Origin: Candidatus Sungiibacteriota bacterium
GTDB taxonomy: Bacteria > Patescibacteriota > Minisyncoccia > Sungbacterales > SURF-37
NCBI GenBank assembly: GCA_016186145.1
Contig: JACPMF010000007.1
Coordinates: 85,302-133,579, forward strand
DNA: 48,278 nucleotides
Direction: 5' to 3'
Under the pieces are notes generated by a model. The model was not told the DNA's origin and searched no databases. It was given only the letters and a program-made list of their open reading frames with translations. The position numbers and the translations under genes were made by a program. Positions 1,219-46,056 of the stretch are shown piece by piece. Within the stretch, counting starts at the first letter, position 1, and each line of letters starts with the position of its first letter.

Positions 1219-2298
1219 CTAGCCGCAACCGCAGATTCCGGTGGTTTGATCAAAAATCGCATTTTGGTACCCTTCGCATACGCTGTTAAGACACCCTACC
1301 TGTACATTGCACGCCGCGCCGTACGGACCGCAGTCTTCCACGAAAGCGCAGCCGGTTGTACAAAAGAAGCCGCAATTACAACATATTGTAGCCAAGTTTG
1401 ATCCCGGCGTCTGATCCGCGGGATTGTCGTCTTTGTAACAGTCCCCTTTTGTAACCCAAGCGGCATATGCCGGTTTTGACCGCATAAAGACGTAGGCAAA
1501 GCCGTCCAAGATGTCCTGCAAAATCGCGGGCTTCGATTTGTTTACAAACCGCTGGCCGCCGGGAAGGACTACCGACGCCTTTCTTCCTGAACGAATGTTG
1601 CCTTTTTCTCCGTCAACCAGTTCCGGCAAAACCTCGTCTATTCCGCGTATAAAATTATTATAATCCTCCGCGGTAATCCAGCCCTTAAAAAGGGCATAGG
1701 CGTCAAGAGCTTTTACAAAGTTGTAAATATCGGCATCGGAGGCAAAGGCAACATGCTGGCTCGAACTTATGAAGCCGTCGTTAACCATCAAACCTCTCAT
1801 ATCAAAAAGATAGTCACGGTAGTGCTTGGGCCAAATTATTTCAAAAATCTCTTTCTCCGACAGCTGTTGATACTGAAAAACGGCCGGTGGCGATGAAAAA
1901 ACCGGTTGATCTGTTGACGTTTTTTCAGAAGCTGCTTCTTTTTTTCCAGTAAATACTCCTGGAACCAAAGAAGAAACTGGCTTAAGAATCTCAACCGCAA
2001 GCGGCGGCAACTGAAAAGTTGATCCAAAAAACTCTATTTTTGCTTCCCTTTCGATCTCCGAACCTCTTGCAGAGATTGTTGCCTCTTGCCGGACTTTTTT
2101 TAAAGCTTGCTCTCCGGTTGGCTCGAGAGCTACCGGCGGGACCCCTCCGGAAACTAACGGGCGGGGAGCCACAGGCGGCTTTTCCGGCGTAAAAACAAAT
2201 AAAAGCCCCGCAGTTGCTATAACAGCCGCGGAAATGGCTGAAACTATAATAACTGCCTGTCGGTTCATACTTAACATCTTAACACCAAAGCGAGCCAT
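1219..2298 (-). CDS. Membrane-anchored hypothetical protein with a very Cys-rich C-terminal ~75 aa
   Basis: 359-aa ORF with an N-terminal TM segment (AVIIVSAISAAVIATAGLLFVF). The C-terminus is ...CYKDD...ICCNCGFFCTTGCAFVEDCGPYGAACNVQVGCLNSVCEGY...GICGCG. The exact start (M1/M8/M11) is uncertain. Confidence 0.6.
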   Translation of the reverse strand: MARFGVKMLSMNRQAVIIVSAISAAVIATAGLLFVFTPEKPPVAPRPLVSGGVPPVALEPTGEQALKKVRQEATISARGSEIEREAKIEFFGSTFQLPPLAVEILKPVSSLVPGVFTGKKEAASEKTSTDQPVFSSPPAVFQYQQLSEKEIFEIIWPKHYRDYLFDMRGLMVNDGFISSSQHVAFASDADIYNFVKALDAYALFKGWITAEDYNNFIRGIDEVLPELVDGEKGNIRSGRKASVVLPGGQRFVNKSKPAILQDILDGFAYVFMRSKPAYAAWVTKGDCYKDDNPADQTPGSNLATICCNCGFFCTTGCAFVEDCGPYGAACNVQVGCLNSVCEGYQNAIFDQTTGICGCG

Positions 2299-2347
2299 CC
2301 TAAAATTTTCATTGGCGGGGCCGGCTAACAGCTATCCCCAAAGCGAA

Positions 2348-2654
2348 CCGCCGCGAGAATTTTCCATTACGGAGATTTTGGTCGCAAATGGTGAAAGCGG
2401 CGAAAAGGGAAACCCGAGCCGCAGCGTAAGGGCGAAAAGCGTTTAAATAGCTTTTCGCGGGCATTGCGAGGAAGCGAGCGAAGCGAGCTCCCGCAGCAGG
2501 ATGCCCGGGAACGGGTTCCCCTCGACGACGCGTGTCCAGGGTGTAGAACTGCGCGTGCCGCTTCGCGGCATGCTCGTTACACCCGTGCGGAAGCTATTCA
2601 AACGCTTCCGCACCCATTTGTCAAAATCGCAGTTCTGGAAAATTCTCGCGGCGG
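2348..2654. other. ~300-nt GC-rich structured intergenic element closed by a perfect 19-bp helix; contains two inverted copies of structured module 2
   Basis: CCGCCGCGAGAATTTTCCA (2348-2366) is the exact reverse complement of 2636-2654. Inside are many hairpins, and module-2 copies at 2430-2510 (+) and 2535-2603 (-). Confidence 0.45.
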
Positions 2655-2724
2655 TGAGCGACGTTATCCACAGAAAAACTACACTTTCTACGCATTTTTT
2701 CCACAGGGGAGTATAATTAAATCA

Positions 2725-3723
2725 ATGAGAAATAACGAGCATTTACGGAAAACTCTTGGAAAACACCGGAGGTGGTTTTTGGTTTTCGGCGGGGTATTGA
2801 CTTTAGCGGTTACCGCCATTTTCTTCTTTGTACCCTTCTCACCCAAAGAAAATAAACGTTATTCAGGCCCGCCCAAAACAAAAGAAGAGGTAATTGAGCT
2901 ATTAAACCGCGATACTGACAACGACGGCCTGAAAGATTGGGAAGAGAAAATATACGGAACTGACCCGGAAAATGCCGATACTGACGGCGACGGAACTCCC
3001 GACGGCGAAGAAATAAAACTTTCAAGAAACCCGCTCCGCCCCGGGCCGGGAGACGAACTCTCTATCCCGCTCCCCCCGCCAACAAACGGCAACAAGACAG
3101 AGGCTTTGGCAAACGAATTCATCGGCCGCTCGCTCACCCAAATCCTTGCCGAGAGCGTAACAGGAGGAGAATTACCAACCGATCTCTCGGGCGTGCCCGC
3201 CCTTAACACCTATACGCAAAAACTCGGCGAGGAGCGCCCCCTCGACAAAGTCATACCGCCGGAAACGCGAGAGCTTGCCCTGTCGGACGACAACTCGCCG
3301 GAGACGGTTAAAAAGTACTTCAACCGCATCGCGGATATTTACGATAAAAATTTCTCGCCAATTGATAGCGACATAAATATCCTGTATCTTGCCGCGGCGG
3401 GCAACAACCCGAAGGCTTTCAGGCGGCTTGACGCCAATGTAAAAGCGCTTGAAAACGCCATAGCAGAAATAAAAAAAACAACAGTGCCCTCAAAGTGGAC
3501 CAAATTCGCCAAAGACGATATCTGGTACTTGTCTAAAACACTTGCTGCCGTGAAAATTCTTAAAAATAGCGAGAATGACCCTGTTTCATCACTTCTTATC
3601 TTGCGAGACCGTATTCAACTAGTGGAAGACATGAAAAATTTATATCTTGACACCAAAAAAAACTTAGCTGCCGCCGGAATCGCCTTTGAAAAAGACGAGT
3701 TGGCGTCTTGGCTTTTGCAATAA
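2725..3723 (+). CDS. Membrane-anchored protein with thrombospondin-type-3-like Ca-binding repeats
   Basis: ATG at 2725 is in frame with the longer track ORF and follows a TATAAT at 2712-2717. TM segment WFLVFGGVLTLAVTAIFFFV. Asp-rich repeats DTDNDGLKDWEE...DTDGDGTPDGEE. Confidence 0.65.
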   Translation: MRNNEHLRKTLGKHRRWFLVFGGVLTLAVTAIFFFVPFSPKENKRYSGPPKTKEEVIELLNRDTDNDGLKDWEEKIYGTDPENADTDGDGTPDGEEIKLSRNPLRPGPGDELSIPLPPPTNGNKTEALANEFIGRSLTQILAESVTGGELPTDLSGVPALNTYTQKLGEERPLDKVIPPETRELALSDDNSPETVKKYFNRIADIYDKNFSPIDSDINILYLAAAGNNPKAFRRLDANVKALENAIAEIKKTTVPSKWTKFAKDDIWYLSKTLAAVKILKNSENDPVSSLLILRDRIQLVEDMKNLYLDTKKNLAAAGIAFEKDELASWLLQ

Positions 3724-3732
3724 TAAAACAAA

Positions 3733-5457
3733 ATGAGCACTGCCGCCGTTTATAAAGAATACATTGCTCTATTGGTGCTTGCCATATTCGCCTGCGGTCT
3801 TATCATTGCCCCGTTATCAGTTAAGGCGACGGTGCCGACCGCGGAAGTCGTTAATGTACCAATCCTGATAGGCAAGGCGGTTCTTCAACTTGCCGAGCTG
3901 GTATTTCAATCGGCGCAAGAATACGCCCTGGTTCTAAAAGAGTATGTTCTGGATCCGGCGGCAAAGCTTCTTGTTTCATTCATGATCCAAACCCTGACCC
4001 GGGCAGTCATCGGCTGGATCCAAAGCGGTGGAAACACAAATTTCATCTCGAATCTGCAAGCGGCAACAGCAAGGGTTGCGGATGAAGCCGCGGGTGAATT
4101 CCTTAATCAGCTTGCCGGCACAAACCTCTGCCAGCCATTCTCGTTCGACATCAAACTCATCTTCCAGATACCAACCCTGCGGGATAAGCTCACCTGCACC
4201 GCAACGGACATTTTTAGAAATCTGGAAACTTCGTATGAGAACTTCCTCAATAATTTTACCAACGGGGGGTGGATTGCATTCCAAACCGCAATGCTCCCCC
4301 AAAATAACTACATCGATGTTCTTATCAATACGTACGATGAAAAACTTCGCCGTGAATCACGGCAGGTTGCTATACTTGAAAGTCAATACCAAGCGGGGCA
4401 AGGATTTGTTGGTGTCAGAATAAAAAAAGAGCTTTGCGAAGACATCATTGACGACGACGGGGAACCCGCAGCAAGTTGCACTACGCAATACATAAATACA
4501 ACACCGGGAACTCTTGTTTCTGACCAGCTCAAAAAAACTTTCAGTTCCGGCTGGGACCAGGCGGTTGACGCCGACGAAATCGGGGAGGCAATTGATGCAA
4601 TTATTGTAGCACTCGTACAGCAGCTCATCTCTTCGGCACAAGCCGGTCTTGCATCCGGCGACGAAGAAAGCGGAATTTACGATCCCGGCTTTGGAACATC
4701 GGCGCCGCTGCCGCGGCCCTTACCGAACCTCTTTATACCAACAGGACCGGTGCCGACCGCTACAACCACCATCCTTGCCGGAGATACTGTCAGATTCCGC
4801 GGCACGATCCAAAATAACGGTGGGAGAACCGATGAGCTTTTCAACGCGCGTTTTGAAATCGATGTTAACGCCGACGCCTCCGTTGACGCGATCCTTTCCC
4901 CTGATACGCCGGTTGACGGCCTGCTCGACAACGGCTCCATTGACATAACTTCAGGACCATGGATAGCAACGGAAGGCGTCCACCGCATCATACTTTGCGC
5001 CGACCAGCCGATTTCGGTTGTTGCCGAATCCCTCGAAACCGACAACTGCAACGGCGGAAGCTCGGGAACCTTCGCCGTCGGCTCACGACCCGACCTCTTC
5101 ATCTCTCAAAACCCATCAATGTTTTCCGGCGTACCGGTATCCGGATCGAAAATCACATTCGGCGGCATCGTCGGAAACCAAGGTGGGAATACGGCAACTT
5201 CCACATTTGAAAATACATTCCAGATTGACTTCGACAACAATGGCAGTATAGACGTTCAACTCACCCCAAGCCCAACCATTGCAAACCTCACGCCCGGCAC
5301 AACTCAACAGGTACTTTCTAACCAGTGGACCGCCGTCGCCGGCACGCACCGCGTGATTCTCTGCGCGGATACTCCATTCGACACGATCAGAGAAACCAAC
5401 GAAGCGAACAACTGCAATCCCACAGGAACGGGAATATTTACGATAACGACCTTTTAG
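3733..5457 (+). CDS. Secreted/anchored protein with two C-terminal CARDB-like repeats
   Basis: N-terminal hydrophobic signal/anchor. Two ~110-aa repeats each end ...W(I/T)A..G.HR(I/V)ILCAD.P......E.NNCN. Confidence 0.6.
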   Translation: MSTAAVYKEYIALLVLAIFACGLIIAPLSVKATVPTAEVVNVPILIGKAVLQLAELVFQSAQEYALVLKEYVLDPAAKLLVSFMIQTLTRAVIGWIQSGGNTNFISNLQAATARVADEAAGEFLNQLAGTNLCQPFSFDIKLIFQIPTLRDKLTCTATDIFRNLETSYENFLNNFTNGGWIAFQTAMLPQNNYIDVLINTYDEKLRRESRQVAILESQYQAGQGFVGVRIKKELCEDIIDDDGEPAASCTTQYINTTPGTLVSDQLKKTFSSGWDQAVDADEIGEAIDAIIVALVQQLISSAQAGLASGDEESGIYDPGFGTSAPLPRPLPNLFIPTGPVPTATTTILAGDTVRFRGTIQNNGGRTDELFNARFEIDVNADASVDAILSPDTPVDGLLDNGSIDITSGPWIATEGVHRIILCADQPISVVAESLETDNCNGGSSGTFAVGSRPDLFISQNPSMFSGVPVSGSKITFGGIVGNQGGNTATSTFENTFQIDFDNNGSIDVQLTPSPTIANLTPGTTQQVLSNQWTAVAGTHRVILCADTPFDTIRETNEANNCNPTGTGIFTITTF

Positions 5458-5545
5458 GTTTGAATCATGAGTCGGGAATAAAAGATCGCCTTTCAGGTTC
5501 GTAATTCTTAACTCGACTATTATCCGGGGCTTGGAACCTGGTTTA

Positions 5546-8500
5546 ATGAAAAACATTTTAAAAAACTTGATTTGCGGGCTTCTCCTTTTCGGTTTCCTTT
5601 TACCGCTGTTTTCGGCAACGCTTATTTTGCCGCACGAAGCTTACGCAGCAGATGTTGGCGTATCAAGTACGGGGGCGGCATCTATCAAGAATGCATTTGA
5701 GAACGCAAGGGGGTGTAGCGGTTGGAACCCACTGAACTGGATAAATTTAGACTGCATTATTCTTAATGTTATTTGGGCCGTAGATAACTTTTTATTAGGA
5801 TGGCTTCTTGACCTCGCATCGGAGCTTTTTAATTGGTCGGTCGAAAAAAACCTAACCGATATTACCGACAACGCATTCGTTACCACCGGCTGGGGAATCG
5901 TCCGCGATATCACCAACCTGTTTTTTATCTTTATCCTTCTTTGGATTGCCCTTGCCACGATTTTTAACATCCCGCGATACGGCGCGAAAGACCTTTTGGC
6001 GACGCTTATTATCTCAGCGCTCTTAATTAACTTCAGCCTGGCCATAGGTGGATTCTTTATTAAATTCTCAAACGCCCTGGCCCTGACTTTTCATGATGCG
6101 ATACGCGCACGCGGGAGTGTTACTTTGCAATTGTTGGACTTCACAAATATTCAAAAATTCACCCTTGGCACCCCCCCAGCTCCGGCAGGAACACCGTCAG
6201 CACAACAAACTCCTACAACACCGCCAACGCCGCAAAGAAAAGATGCGCGTTGTAAACAATTTGCAGAGGCAATTATGGCCGCTATAAAAAGGACGGACCA
6301 GAATGCCGCGACATGGGACACACGCTATAACGAGGCATACAAGACATGCGCAAACGACCCGACAACGGATAAAATATTAGAGAACGAGGTGATCGACCTA
6401 AAAGTTAAAGAGGCAATAAACATAGCGCTTTGGCTCATCATCCTCATACCTATTCTTATTTTTGTGTTTCTTGCAGGGGCCGTATTCTTCTTAATTCGCT
6501 ATCTACAACTGGCAATTCTTCTCGTATTTTCGCCGATTGTTTTTCTTTTCTGGATTCTCCCTGACACAAAACATATCTGGAGCGACTGGTGGAACCGGCT
6601 CATCAAGCAGTCCTTCTTTGCCCCGGCTTATCTTTTCCTACTCTTTTTGACAATAACAACTTTTAATCAGTGGAGCGGCAGGACTATTGTTTCTTCGGGC
6701 ACAACCACTGCCGCGGTAACAAGCGTAAGCCCGTTAGCAGAAAACAAGGAACCGCCTCTTTTGAAAAACGCGGCGATCGGCGGACTTGGAACTGGCCTGC
6801 GAACGCAAGAGGCGCTTGCTGAAGTCACATCACCGGCACCGAAGCCAAAATCAAACGACTTTTTTACACTCGGTTTCGAAATGGTGCTTTTTGTAGCACT
6901 CATGATCATGAACCTGATGGTCGCCCAACAGATGGGAATTAAGTTTGCCGGAACCGTAACGGGATGGGGTAGTCGCGCGACGCGCTGGGGCGGAAGAAAA
7001 GTCCGCGGTGCTGCATACCGCCAAGCAATACGAGCCGGAACAGGAGCTGCACGCGGAGTTACAGAAAGCGCTCTTGGCAGGGCAATGGCGCGCACTCCAG
7101 GATTTCGTGCGCTTCTTACACCGGCTGTTGCAATCCAAAAGCAGCGCGAAGCTATTGACGCAGACCGCGCAAAACGCGTTGCCGAACTTGCCCAGGTTTC
7201 TCCGGTTGCCGCCGCCGAACGGCTTCAGGGCGAAAGCATGGCGGTGAAAGCCGCTTATGCCAAATCGGCAAGCCCTGAAGCGATGAGAAAAATTTTAGGA
7301 GGAATGACCACAAAGAACCCTGATGGAAGCAATAACTACGACGCACAAGAAGAATATGTGCGCCAGATGAATGAAAATGCGGATCGCTACCGCATTGAGG
7401 ACCTCGACAAGAAAGTTGGCGAGGCAATGGCAAAAGACCCGCGCGGTCTTACCCTCCGAACTGTAGCGAAAACCGGCGCCAGCACCAGCGACCCAAATTT
7501 CCAACAAAAAGTTAACAGCTACCTTGCCGGTTTGGACGACAGAGAGTTTGCTCAAACGATGACAGCGAAAACTATTGAGGAAAACCCATACGCGCAAAAT
7601 TACATTGTAAGAAACTTCAAAGACGAACGCCGCATTGGCAACGCCGTTTTGGGCACACCGGAAAAAATAACAGCTTTCAAAAAACTGATAAGCAAACTGG
7701 CCGAAGAAGTAGACCACGGCCTTACATTGCCTTTCTTGCCGCCCGATGAACGAAGCAAAAAAGAAATTGAATATGCATCAACCGCCATGGAAAACGCTGG
7801 CAACCACGATGGCGCGACAGCGCTTGCAACTACACCAATTCTAGAAGTGCTGGCCGGCGCCGGCGTTCGTAAATTCACCCGTGAAGATTACCAACCCCCA
7901 ATCGGCGCCTGTTGCTTGCCAACTGGAAACTGCGTTATAACAACCTCTGTTGATTGCAGGACGCAGGGGGGCAGCTTCATGGGCATTGGGGTTCCATGCA
8001 CGCCCGGACTTTGTTCGCCAACAACACCGCCACCACCTCCGCCGCCGCAACCCGGACCACCACCTCCGGGAGGACCTCCACCACCAACTCCACCAGCACC
8101 GCCGCCTAGAACCCCGCCAAGAACTCCACCGCCCCCAACAACACCACCGACAACACCAAGAGGGCCAACACCACCAACCCCGCCAGCACCTCCAAGCGGA
8201 GGAGCGCTTCCGTCAGCAGCAACAGCCGGATTAAGCCGTCGCGGCTTACCACCACTCCCTGCTCCACCAGCGCTACCTCCTCCAACAACACCTCCGCCGG
8301 CCGGGGGAGGGCTTCCATCAATACTGGAGGCCGCAATGAAACGCCGTGGCTTAAGCCCCCTTCCTCAAACATCGCCAACCACACCATCGGCGCCCATAAC
8401 TCCGTCACCCACACCACCAACGCCAACACCTCCCGCGGGGACCGTTATTCCTCCAACCACGCCAACAACAAGAACGCCGCGACAAAAAACAACCGGAGTT

Positions 8501-38632: not shown

Positions 38633-38780
38633 AGCCGAAGGTGGGAATCCTCTTCCTCTGAAATTTTGCGCGCCCCTCGATATAACTCGGGACAGGCAAA
38701 ATTTCTCCCCCAGAGCCCGGGTTTCCAAAATCGTAAAGCAGTTTACGATTTTGGAATACCCTTCGATTCCCATCTTCACC
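38633..38780. ncRNA. Family-B structured element, copy 1 (three-way junction; tRNA-3'-end-like terminal inverted repeats)
   Basis: P1 is TGGGAATC (38642-38649)/GATTCCCA (38765-38772). There is a 15-bp hairpin TTCCAAAATCGTAAA/TTTACGATTTTGGAA and a 10-bp stem GAAATTTTGC/GCAAAATTTC. About 60 nt are identical to 48016-48137. Confidence 0.5.
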
Positions 38781-38788
38781 TCAACCAT

Positions 38789-38827
38789 CAAAAACAAAAC
38801 CACTTTTTATAGGTGGTTTTGTTTTTG
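38789..38827. terminator. 15-bp perfect hairpin between the tRNA locus and the family-B element
   Basis: CAAAAACAAAACCAC-(9 nt)-GTGGTTTTGTTTTTG. Confidence 0.6.
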
Positions 38828-38829
38828 AT

Positions 38830-39063
38830 AGCCGAAGATGGGAATCGAACCCACATTTCTACTTTACGAAAGTAATGTCCCGATTTTGTTCAAACTTTTG
38901 AAGCCAGGGGTGGGAGTCGAACCCACAACCTCTGCTTTACGAAAGCATTGCTCTGCCATTGAGCTACCCTGGCTGCAAAAGTTTGAACAAAATCGAGGAT
39001 CCTCGATTCGCCAACCGCGCTCCGCGCGGGCGAATCGGGACTCTACCATTGAACTACTTCGGC
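38830..39063 (-). tRNA. Interrupted tRNA-Thr(CGU)-like gene: 23-nt 5' part and 48-nt 3' part separated by a 163-nt insertion that contains another tRNA
   Basis: The 5' part 39063-39041 is GCCGAAGUAGUUCAAUGGUAGAG. The 3' part 38877-38830 is CAUUACUUUCGUAAAGUAGAAAUGUGGGUUCGAUUCCCAUCUUCGGCU. Joined, they give a 71-nt cloverleaf. Confidence 0.65.
38902..38973 (-). tRNA. tRNA-Thr (anticodon CGU), intact, no encoded CCA
   Basis: GCCAGGG UA GCUC AAUGGCA GAGC A AUGCU UUCGUAA AGCAG AGGUU GUGGG UUCGACU CCCAC CCCUGGC U. All four arms pair (one A/G mismatch at 27:43). Confidence 0.92.
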
Positions 39064-45483: not shown

Positions 45484-45542
45484 AAAAGGACGGTTCGATT
45501 TACGATGAATATAAATGGGCACATCTGGACTCGAACCAGCGT

Positions 45543-45615
45543 TCCCGGGCGTAGAACTGCGCCGCTTTCGGCGTGCTCGTTATGCCCGCTCGAAGCAAAG
45601 ACATTTGCTTCTCGC
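45543..45615 (-). repeat. Structured module 2, copy b
   Basis: GCGAG-[GAAGCAAA UGUC UUUGCUUC]-GAGCGGGCAUAACGAGCA-[CGCCG AAA GCGGCG]-CAGUUCUACGCCCGGGA. Confidence 0.7.
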
Positions 45616-45642
45616 CCTCTGCAATGCCTGCCCCGTTACAAA

Positions 45643-45828
45643 TGGGCGTAGTAGGGATCGAACCTACGACCTTTCGCATGCTTGCCCGCCCAAATTTCTG
45701 AACAATGGACGGTGCAGGATTCGAACCTGCGGCCCCTGCAATGTGAATACAGTGCTCTACCGCTGAGCTAACCGTCCAGAAATTTAGGCGGGTGAAAAGC
45801 GAACGCTCTGCCACTGAGCCATACGCCC
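45643..45828 (-). tRNA. Split tRNA with anticodon loop UUUUCAC (UUC, Glu-type): 37-nt + 35-nt halves separated by a 114-nt insertion carrying tRNA-Val
   Basis: Halves are 45828-45792 and 45677-45643. Joined they read GGGCGUA UG GCUC AGUGGCA GAGC G UUCGC UUUUCAC GCGAA AGGUC GUAGG UUCGAUC CCUAC UACGCCC A. Every stem is Watson-Crick. Confidence 0.7.
45706..45777 (-). tRNA. tRNA-Val (anticodon CAC), intact, no encoded CCA
   Basis: GGACGGU UA GCUC AGCGGUA GAGC A CUGUA UUCACAU UGCAG GGGCC GCAGG UUCGAAU CCUGC ACCGUCC A. Confidence 0.93.
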
Positions 45829-45933
45829 ATATCCATTTGTAACGGGGTGAAAGTCCCGACGGCTCCGCCGTCGCGGATCCTCGATTTTGCAGCTCCGACG
45901 TCAAGCTGGAGGCAAAATCGGGACAGCGCTCTA

Positions 45934-46015
45934 TCCCGGGCATGGTACTGCGCTGTCCGACTAAAGTCAGACTGCTCGTAATGCCCGCGAGAATCCTATT
46001 TAAACGGATTCTCGC
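45934..46015 (-). repeat. Structured module 2, copy a
   Basis: GCGAG-extended hairpin GAGAAUCC GUUUAAAUA GGAUUCUC-GCGGGCAUUACGAGCA-[GUCUGAC UUUA GUCGGAC]-AGCGCAGUACCAUGCCCGGGA. Confidence 0.7.
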
Positions 46016-46056
46016 CCAACTGAGCTATGTGCCCTTAACAACTAGAAAGCTAACAT

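Follow-up and report, generated by a model that had tools for sequence, protein, structure and literature searches.

What interrupts the tRNA genes of a Candidatus Sungiibacteriota bacterium, and why do their separated halves enclose further, intact tRNA genes? The question is raised by a stretch of 48,278 nucleotides (contig JACPMF010000007.1 of assembly GCA_016186145.1, positions 85,302 to 133,579 of the forward strand; hereafter the window), in which two loci are built as nests of tRNA genes and each nest contains a copy of the same short, structured insertion. A first-pass annotation, made from the letters alone, had recognized these insertions as one family that can carry a tRNA as cargo, and its description implied a structured RNA that is excised. 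We favor a different reading, to which we assign a probability of about 60%: the two copies would be miniature, non-autonomous members of a palindromic double-hairpin mobile DNA element, and the nests the outcome of repeated invasion and replacement.

Both copies lie on the minus strand. Copy 2 (45923..45854) is 70 nt long and reads TCCCGATTTTGC[CTCCAGCTTGACGTCGGAGCT]GCAAAATCGAGGA + TCCGCGACGGC GGA GCCGTCGGGA; copy 1 (39040..38878) is a 163-nt insert that reads TCCCGATTCGCC[CGCGC GGA GCGCG GTT]GGCGAATCGAGGA on the side of its first arm and TCCTCGATTTTGTTCAAACTTTTG-[tRNA-Thr 38974..38900]-CAAAAGTTTGAACAAAATCGGGA on the side of its second. The sequences first quoted for the two copies are exact, and the proposal of one insertion family in both nests holds, since the copies share a common plan with conserved ends and center: TCCCGA-arm 1-TCG(A)GGA, followed directly by TCC(N)CGA-arm 2-TCGGGA. 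When folded, on either strand, each hairpin is built as a 3-bp foot (TCC/GGA), a 1-nt bulge, CGA/TCG and then the arm. Hairpin 1 of copy 1 (39000..39040) is TCC-CGATTCGCC[CGCGC GGA GCGCG GTT]GGCGAATCG-A-GGA with a 1-nt A bulge, and its hairpin 2 (38878..38999) is TCC-T-CGATTTTGTTCAAACTTTTG...CAAAAGTTTGAACAAAATCG-GGA, a 20-bp stem with a tRNA gene as its loop. The corresponding hairpins of copy 2 are TCC-CGATTTTGC[...]GCAAAATCG-A-GGA (45878..45923) and TCC-G-CGACGGC GGA GCCGTCG-GGA (45854..45877), the latter a cargo-free 7-bp stem closed by a GGA loop; the second arm is a plain hairpin in nest 2 and the tRNA-Thr-bearing helix in nest 1, as had been described. The two arms are unlike in sequence between the copies, yet each is self-complementary. 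Both copies fold into two adjacent hairpins with z ~ -4 (-18 kcal/mol and z -4.1 for hairpin 1 of copy 1), and in a scan of the 48 kb foot-bearing hairpins with a stem of >=7 bp occur at these two loci only. One part of the anatomy has to be redrawn. The conservation of the termini and the center stands, but the termini do not pair with each other: each pairs with one half of the center (UCC-CGA...UCG-A-GGA and UCC-N-CGA...UCG-GGA), and AAUCGAGGAUCC, formerly taken as a linker, is the shared center of two feet. The core TCGAGGATCC is a dyad palindrome that equals its own reverse complement if N=T and matches on both strands.

The first-pass annotation had named an absence of further copies and of covariation as fatal to its proposal; both are clearly present. 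Scanning one genome per species for the exact pattern TCCCGATT-N10-40-AATCGAGGATCC, we find at least 118 genome loci. With a regular expression that spans the entire element, 140 well-paired copies are recovered, of which 93 are unique by locus position and 96 by sequence; their length is 39-179 nt (median 70); the cargo-free copies measure 39-103 nt and are fully paired. Most of the matches listed belong to Patescibacteria (Saccharibacteria, Yanofsky-, Magasanik-, Sung-, Pacei- and Parcubacteria), and these matches also include lineage-specific variants in metagenome-assembled genomes (MAGs) labelled Ignavibacteriota, Bacteroidota, WOR-3, Stahlbacteria, Pseudomonadota and others. The same pattern has 0 matches in 2.9 million viral contigs, a phage database shows no similarity, and literature searches returned no published description of the element family. 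This is apparently a very widespread and undescribed family of palindromic double-hairpin mobile DNA in the ultra-small bacteria of the candidate phyla radiation (CPR), and the window, too, has the character of a Sungbacteria-like CPR genome.

The arms vary while staying paired, as the annotation had supposed from two copies. In 55 elements, 202 double-sided changes are observed where 55 are expected, and 96% of the cells in the six arm pairs adjoining each foot are paired; shuffled sequences give 81% and slid controls 28-59%. The stems comprise 1278 Watson-Crick pairs (~99%), 6 G·T, 4 C·A and 5 other isolated mismatches. A structured RNA is expected to have many G·U pairs and few A·C pairs; here G·T is as rare as A·C and the core is a palindrome, which argues for covariation of a DNA type rather than an RNA type. 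The idea that DNA-type GNA triloops are the dominant hairpin loops was dropped, as the loop counts speak against it.

Copies in protein genes point in the same direction. Thirteen of the 93 unique copies lie in long open reading frames (ORFs), and 11 of these keep the host frame open: their length is a multiple of three and the frame runs through them with no stop, both orientations and more than one frame being represented. The other two look like spurious ORFs. The protein hosts, confirmed by Pfam, are leucyl-tRNA synthetase (LeuRS) and other class I aminoacyl-tRNA synthetases, UvrD, ScpA, a PolB-exonuclease-like protein, Fmt and UvrA, and two Saccharibacteria have the insert peptide EELW-SRFFADKKSRI(H/R)DSRSESG-Q in common in LeuRS. 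The in-frame, read-through copies mean that the host mRNAs are not spliced. When the element is deleted precisely, the tRNA or the reading frame is whole again and no target bases are left in duplicate; the flank preference is weak (G^C or G^G, a caret marking here and below the point of interruption). Given nearly pure Watson-Crick stems, a dyad-symmetric core and in-frame translation of the copies in protein genes, the idea of an excised structured RNA is the weaker reading when set against mobile DNA.

The derived state of the insertion can be seen at nest 1. Here an outer tRNA-Thr(CGU) is split, on the minus strand, into a 5' part of 23 nt (39041..39063, GCCGAAGTAGTTCAATGGTAGAG) and a 3' part of 48 nt (38830..38877), and the intact inner tRNA-Thr(CGU) at 38900..38974, found by ARAGORN and by the Rfam tRNA model with 67 bits, is the cargo of copy 1. 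The junction follows nt 23 in the 3' strand of the D stem, the position first assigned to it; with 39040..38878 deleted, ARAGORN calls a 71-nt tRNA-Thr(CGU), and inner and outer gene are 78% identical. In L120, a syntenic relative with the same gene order and a PNPase 80% identical, the stop codon of DUF4015 is followed directly by a single, uninterrupted tRNA-Thr(CGU), and the outer tRNA-Thr of the window likewise starts 3 nt past the stop codon of DUF4015. No element copies were found in the relatives L119-L121. Since the outer gene occupies the position of the tRNA-Thr of L120, it was the resident gene that was split, and the insertion is derived.

Elements are physically linked to genes of the GIY-YIG nuclease family and to duplicated and nested tRNA genes. 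Clustering of the ORFs within 2 kb of elements yields two recurrent families, LeuRS (10 loci), which is a target, and a protein of about 90 amino acids with a GIY-YIG domain (8 loci). The latter matches Pfam GIY-YIG (PF01541) with E = 1e-13 to 1e-19; its best PDB profile matches are UPF0213 proteins (1zg2 and 1ywl; BH0048 and EF2693), followed by the structure-specific endonuclease SLX1, its closest relative among characterized proteins, and it consists of a single catalytic domain with no DNA-binding domain. In L012, L095 and L066, and likewise in L122-L125 and L137, a complete element encloses the ORF exactly in its arm 1 (the boundaries of these long elements were resolved by eye). The start codon of the nuclease in L012, L095 and L066 is located in the 5' stem, and the frame continues through the core (..KSRILDF..). 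Two complete units, in L125 and L066, hold GIY-YIG in the first arm and a tRNA-Ala in the second; their host is an outer tRNA-Ala, which they interrupt between bases 35 and 36 of the anticodon. At 41 of 80 metagenomic loci with a homologous GIY-YIG gene there is a tRNA within 600 nt, always co-oriented and often starting 7-25 nt past the GIY-YIG stop codon. Upstream of the ORF, 8 of 22 such loci repeat the first 14 nt of the tRNA, against 4% by chance, and the 3' end of the tRNA is also repeated downstream in several GIY-YIG loci. As an observation apart, a complete autonomous element with its GIY-YIG ORF is found inside a Pro/Glu/Thr-rich low-complexity ORF of >1000 codons (L122/L095:~1330..1900).

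In a recurrent pattern, an intact gene is immediately preceded by a short, diverged copy of its 5' part, which the element has split. For tRNAs it is seen in L004, L013, L039, L073, L086, L101, L126 and L129. Protein genes display it too, namely those for LeuRS (L007, L089), EF-G (L069, L090) and GatB (L012/L124), where the diverged copies correspond to the first 12-20 codons and are split at a conserved motif (KKW^Q, AHID^AGK and IGL^E). LeuRS, the commonest neighbor, is struck at three different sites. Nests with an architecture like that of the window occur in L066, L072 and L084 (tRNA-Ala three deep) and also in L091; with L125, these loci bear out the suggestion that an arm can hold a tRNA as cargo. 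The nests of L066, L072 and L084 have extra small copies in the D and T loops, confined to the outer genes. L172 has a full tRNA-Ser nest that lacks the TCGAGGATCC core.

Nest 2 is the more elaborate of the two in the window. Its outer tRNA, A (45516..46034, minus), is split by four inserts, one of which is copy 2, located between nt 29 and 30 (GCGCTG^...^CTTTCAC) in the anticodon stem, again as described in the annotation. We read tRNA A as Val(CAC), a possible assignment only, for ARAGORN is permissive and accepts many boundaries once the inserts are removed. Inside A, in a 13-bp helix, lies a middle tRNA, B (45643..45828, minus), delimited by eye and itself split by a 14-bp helix; its anticodon loop is irregular (8 nt under a Val reading), and enumerated deletions are uninformative about its boundaries, as ARAGORN takes almost any. 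The innermost gene is an intact tRNA-Val(CAC) (45705..45778, minus; ARAGORN and Rfam, 69 bits). ARAGORN and Rfam detect the innermost genes only (Thr 38974..38900 and Val 45778..45705). The 5' 316 nt of nest 2 (46034..45719), which include copy 2, are found with 100% identity in independent Logan assemblies (L202).

How could such nests arise? Under the mobile-DNA reading, the element would enter conserved genes precisely and without target duplication, its arms being free to vary and to act as cargo bays. In protein genes only in-frame, stop-free copies would survive and then be translated, while tRNA genes would be split; survival of the host would accordingly need either a tolerated in-frame protein insert or, for tRNAs, a spare gene. 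Copies with cargo may bring a spare tRNA of the same identity, or create it through nuclease-triggered recombination, and the spare would be expressed from inside the old gene, its release by RNase P and RNase Z being probable and perhaps aided by the long flanking helix. If the spare is struck again, a nest results, whose outer halves are likely inactive relics that collect further small inserts. The pair of hairpins would be the structure that a structure-specific nuclease recognizes and cuts; this nuclease could mobilize the miniatures in trans, and breaks in conserved genes would be repaired in such a way that the element is copied and the target duplicated in part or whole. Homing, in which the nuclease cuts an element-free allele and repair copies the element in, is supported indirectly, because L120 has an empty site, outer and inner genes have the same identity, and gene ends are duplicated.

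Several signs make it probable that the outer tRNAs are relics. Those of L004, L039, L073 and L086 have been truncated or have degenerated; base pairs 31-39 and 49-65 of tRNA A are mismatched, and the anticodon loop of tRNA B is odd; extra small inserts are found only in outer copies; and some ORF-containing inserts sit inside the anticodon itself.

Several observations weigh against this account. We found no GIY-YIG gene in the 48-kb window, so its copies may be fossils or be mobilized from elsewhere, and a GIY-YIG gene is nearby in a minority of elements only. A nuclease that lacks a DNA-binding domain leaves the choice of such different targets unexplained. A fixed core pattern served to ascertain the loci, many of which derive from MAGs whose binning is uncertain. 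The outer tRNAs of the window (Thr), L072 and L084 are full length with all stems paired, which is unexpected for old pseudogenes. Lastly, in the tRNA-Glu(UUC) of L109 an element in the D loop is the sole defect, and there is no spare copy within 8 kb.

The last two points favor a less likely alternative, in which the same DNA element is removed or neutralized after transcription when it resides in tRNA or rRNA genes. The outer tRNAs would then be functional, and the nests polycistronic tRNA precursors. Their processing would rely either on a structure-specific RNA endonuclease together with a ligase, for example RtcB, in which case the element would amount to a third kind of tRNA intron, or on RNase III trimming as in rRNA intervening sequences. 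The outer tRNAs of the window (Thr), L072 and L084 differ from the inner copies by compensatory changes, a single tRNA can hold up to four inserts, and the asymmetric copies inspected in tRNAs are all in sense orientation. However, sense orientation is equally expected under strand-specific DNA targeting, and many outer copies are truncated or degenerate. The copies in protein genes are under an in-frame constraint, so these mRNAs are not spliced; no bulge-helix-bulge (BHB) motif is possible, because the flanks are unrelated to the conserved ends; and there is neither a ribozyme-like unpaired core nor an Rfam match. That G·U is as rare as A·C, and that the core has dyad symmetry, has no RNA rationale, and inserts of several hundred nt with an ORF are found between anticodon bases 35 and 36. 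CPR rRNA genes contain many short non-intron insertions as well as insertions that encode GIY-YIG proteins, the nature of which is unexplained (PMC11270868); these may belong to the same family as the double-hairpin element.

A hairpin miniature inverted-repeat transposable element (MITE) that an HUH (Y1) transposase, like those of IS200/IS605 or REP-RAYT systems, moves in single-stranded form, with GIY-YIG as cargo or as a neighbor at a tRNA hot spot, is improbable. It would account for the precise insertion with no target-site duplication, for imperfect hairpins with an extrahelical base that fold on either strand, and for the weak G^ preference at the left flank. But no transposase family recurs near the elements, where GIY-YIG is the sole recurrent ORF that is not a target; the hairpins are terminal, not subterminal; there is no conserved tetranucleotide target; the ends of IS200/IS605 are asymmetric whereas the element is dyad-symmetric; and the GIY-YIG ORF lies exactly inside arm 1 with its frame running through the core. 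A structural module that benefits the host (a processing stalk, a terminator, or a protein-binding site that organizes the expression of tRNA clusters) is more improbable still: the core is conserved across several phyla among the matches listed, and the long helices around cargo tRNAs resemble rRNA processing stalks, but the element also sits inside many unrelated housekeeping coding sequences and inside anticodons, is missing from the syntenic relative, and among the matches listed differs greatly in copy number between genomes.

Assignment to known classes gave the following picture. A BHB tRNA intron was rejected, as there is no bulge-helix-bulge with its two 3-nt bulges around a 4-bp helix, and the exon flanks (GAG^..^CAT, CTG^..^CTT, TTG^..^GTA and TTTG^..^CAA) have no complement in the invariant ends; the bulges of the element are single nucleotides and internal to it. 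A group I tRNA intron was rejected for want of a ribozyme core (P3-P9, ~200 nt or more, against 70 nt for the copy in nest 2). Small self-cleaving ribozymes (hammerhead, twister, pistol, hatchet, HDV-like) have no Rfam match here, and all conserved bases lie in Watson-Crick stems. Rfam searches of both nests, at the gathering thresholds and at E<=10, returned only the two inner tRNAs and noise: the copy in nest 1 is unmatched as an element, and that in nest 2 has only a chance-level AdoCbl match on the opposite strand. IS200/IS605-PATE and REP/RAYT elements were rejected, there being no recurrent Y1 transposase within 2 kb and no conserved tetra- or pentanucleotide. Like MITEs, the short ORF-less copies (93 unique) share ends and core with larger relatives, the GIY-YIG-bearing L012, L095, L066 and L122-L125, but they lack a target-site duplication. 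An ORF within the element, as in a GIY-YIG cassette, is found in the relatives but not in the two window copies.

Returning to the mobile-DNA reading, we propose tentatively that a bare SLX1-like GIY-YIG nuclease drives a new class of bacterial element, which would break essential genes (tRNAs, LeuRS, EF-G, GatB), spread by providing a spare copy, and use the double hairpin as its DNA handle. It would be a natural cleave-and-rescue drive, perhaps directed by the gene fragments on either side of the hairpins, and its recursion would have left the Matryoshka tRNA genes as a footprint. The way in which the parts are combined appears to be new: one arm of the double hairpin holds a UPF0213 nuclease, the other a spare tRNA, and the whole nests recursively.

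Further features of the two nests are recorded here as side observations. On the minus strand of nest 2, two cargo helices lack the TCCCGA/TCGAGGATCC core: CCCCGTTACAAAT/ATTTGTAACGGGG (45847..45631) holds tRNA B, and CCGCCTAAATTTCT/AGAAATTTGGGCGG (~45792..45683) holds tRNA-Val. Both follow a TTTCA(C) remnant of an anticodon loop and precede CA(G/A)GCAT, and they may be degenerate single-hairpin units with a CCCG/CGGG foot. A second family of inserts, module 2, has two copies in the outer tRNA of nest 2 (46015..45938 and 45615..45547, minus, +/-2 nt), one located in the D loop and the other in the variable/T region; both consist of a hairpin (GCGAGAATCC..GGATTCTCGC or GCGAGAAGCAAA..TTTGCTTCGAGC) and, after it, GGGCAT(T/A)ACGAGCA...GCGCAGT.C.A.GCCC. 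Module 2 has no Rfam match, and 200 other loci contain chance matches only and no copy. Directly 3' of nest 1 (38829..38760, minus) is a long perfect palindrome, AAAAACAAAACCAC..GTGGTTTTGTTTTT, probably a terminator. Four independent short-read assemblies (L206-L209) start at about 38739, just downstream of the palindrome, L202 stops within nest 2, and contigs found through a neighboring protein of 203 amino acids end just before nest 1. Look-ups of the DUF4015 and C39 proteins found no further assemblies of nest 1. The nests evidently fragment short-read assemblies.

The family also includes variants of the basic plan. In L129:1424..1472, and also in L126 and L013, the foot is TGCCGA...TCGAGCATCC, with TGC/GCA instead of TCC/GGA, which indicates that even the foot can covary; the L129 element sits after nt 11 of a 5' fragment of tRNA-Glu and is followed by GIY-YIG and then by an intact tRNA-Glu. 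An arm-1 variant with a conserved AT-rich stretch of ~30 nt and no clean hairpin is found in L023, L027, L029, L031, L036 and L068, and also in L071, L076, L093, L094 and L099 (hosts WOR-3, Stahlbacteria and unclassified MAGs); it is combined with a minimal arm 2 (TCC-CGC-TTT-GCG-GGA) and often has short repeats of the GAATTTGG type at its flanks. L085, from an Ignavibacteriota MAG, has six near-identical copies (~1737..6267), one every 700-1000 nt, and L002, L022 and L030 are similar; these copies are embedded in a longer repeat, with the element between ..CGGACTGA and GCTGCGGCGG, that looks like a different, larger repeated unit. In L035 (~1640..1760) the element forms the loop of a longer inverted repeat whose arms contain the DnaA-box-like TGTGGATAA / TTATCCACA.

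If the mobile-DNA reading is true, much missing or odd tRNA annotation in genomes of CPR bacteria (Patescibacteria) has a simple explanation; since ARAGORN and Rfam see only the innermost genes, gene finders need models of the inserts. It would also describe a new type of mobile element, one with only a nuclease, which recognizes DNA shape and comes with a rescue copy of its essential target. The large orphan family UPF0213 would gain a role, and engineered cleave-and-rescue drives would gain a natural analogue. Reduced CPR genomes would moreover tolerate selfish DNA in aminoacyl-tRNA synthetases, UvrA and other proteins, which affects how insertions in their proteins are read. Removal at the RNA level, if true, would be equally notable, as a third tRNA-intron system in bacteria.

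How does the element compare with known systems? The double-hairpin elements (DHEs) of mitochondria in Allomyces, other chytrids and Schizosaccharomyces are, as far as the summary of Paquin et al. 2000 in PMC10085805 goes, near-identical across species and presumed to be mobile, their mechanism being left unexplained there. They resemble the present element in being short (tens of nt), multi-copy, formed by two consecutive stem-loops, and located between genes as well as inside RNA genes, a likeness in architecture only. DHEs are mitochondrial and G+C-rich, and their arms have no described nuclease gene or tRNA cargo, whereas the element described here is bacterial (CPR), has the core TCCCGA/TCGAGGATCC/TCGGGA, and enters tRNA anticodons and protein genes. 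Rickettsia palindromic elements (RPEs) are reportedly inserted in frame and translated in housekeeping protein genes, and are said to occur in RNA genes also. They too are palindromic selfish DNA that forms in-frame, stop-free protein inserts as small copies without a transposase, but RPEs are 100-150 bp long, form a single long hairpin and are limited to Rickettsia and its relatives; we know of no autonomous partner or gene cargo for them.

The logic of a nuclease at a tRNA locus has a parallel in SegB of phages T4 and T6, a free-standing GIY-YIG endonuclease whose cuts in tRNA DNA trigger recombination and thereby duplication or amplification of the tRNA-nuclease segment (PMC13096335). Here too a GIY-YIG gene adjoins co-oriented tRNA genes. 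However, SegB has a DNA-binding part, is phage-borne and has no described hairpin element or nesting, whereas the present nuclease is a bare catalytic domain of the UPF0213/SLX1 branch, chromosomal and enclosed in a hairpin arm. The tRNA genes of the archaeal Thermoproteales, with BHB introns, transposed introns and split tRNAs (Fujishima et al. 2010, as cited in PMC10714607), are similar in that small inserts occupy many non-canonical tRNA positions, several per tRNA, and behave as mobile. Those are RNA introns with a bulge-helix-bulge formed by the exons and cut by EndA; the present element has a bacterial host, no BHB, and is translated within proteins. In the mitochondria of the fungus Allomyces, a mobile nuclease cassette reportedly replaces the end of atp6, and the displaced fragment is said to stay alongside. 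In both cases a nuclease cassette enters an essential gene and supplies a replacement for the part that it broke, but in atp6 the 3' end of a protein gene is replaced, whereas the duplications seen with the present element concern entire tRNAs or the 5' ends of LeuRS, EF-G and GatB, and the process recurs to form nests. The closest analogues are DHEs in architecture, RPEs in behavior within proteins, and the GIY-YIG endonucleases of tRNA loci together with the fungal cassettes in logic.

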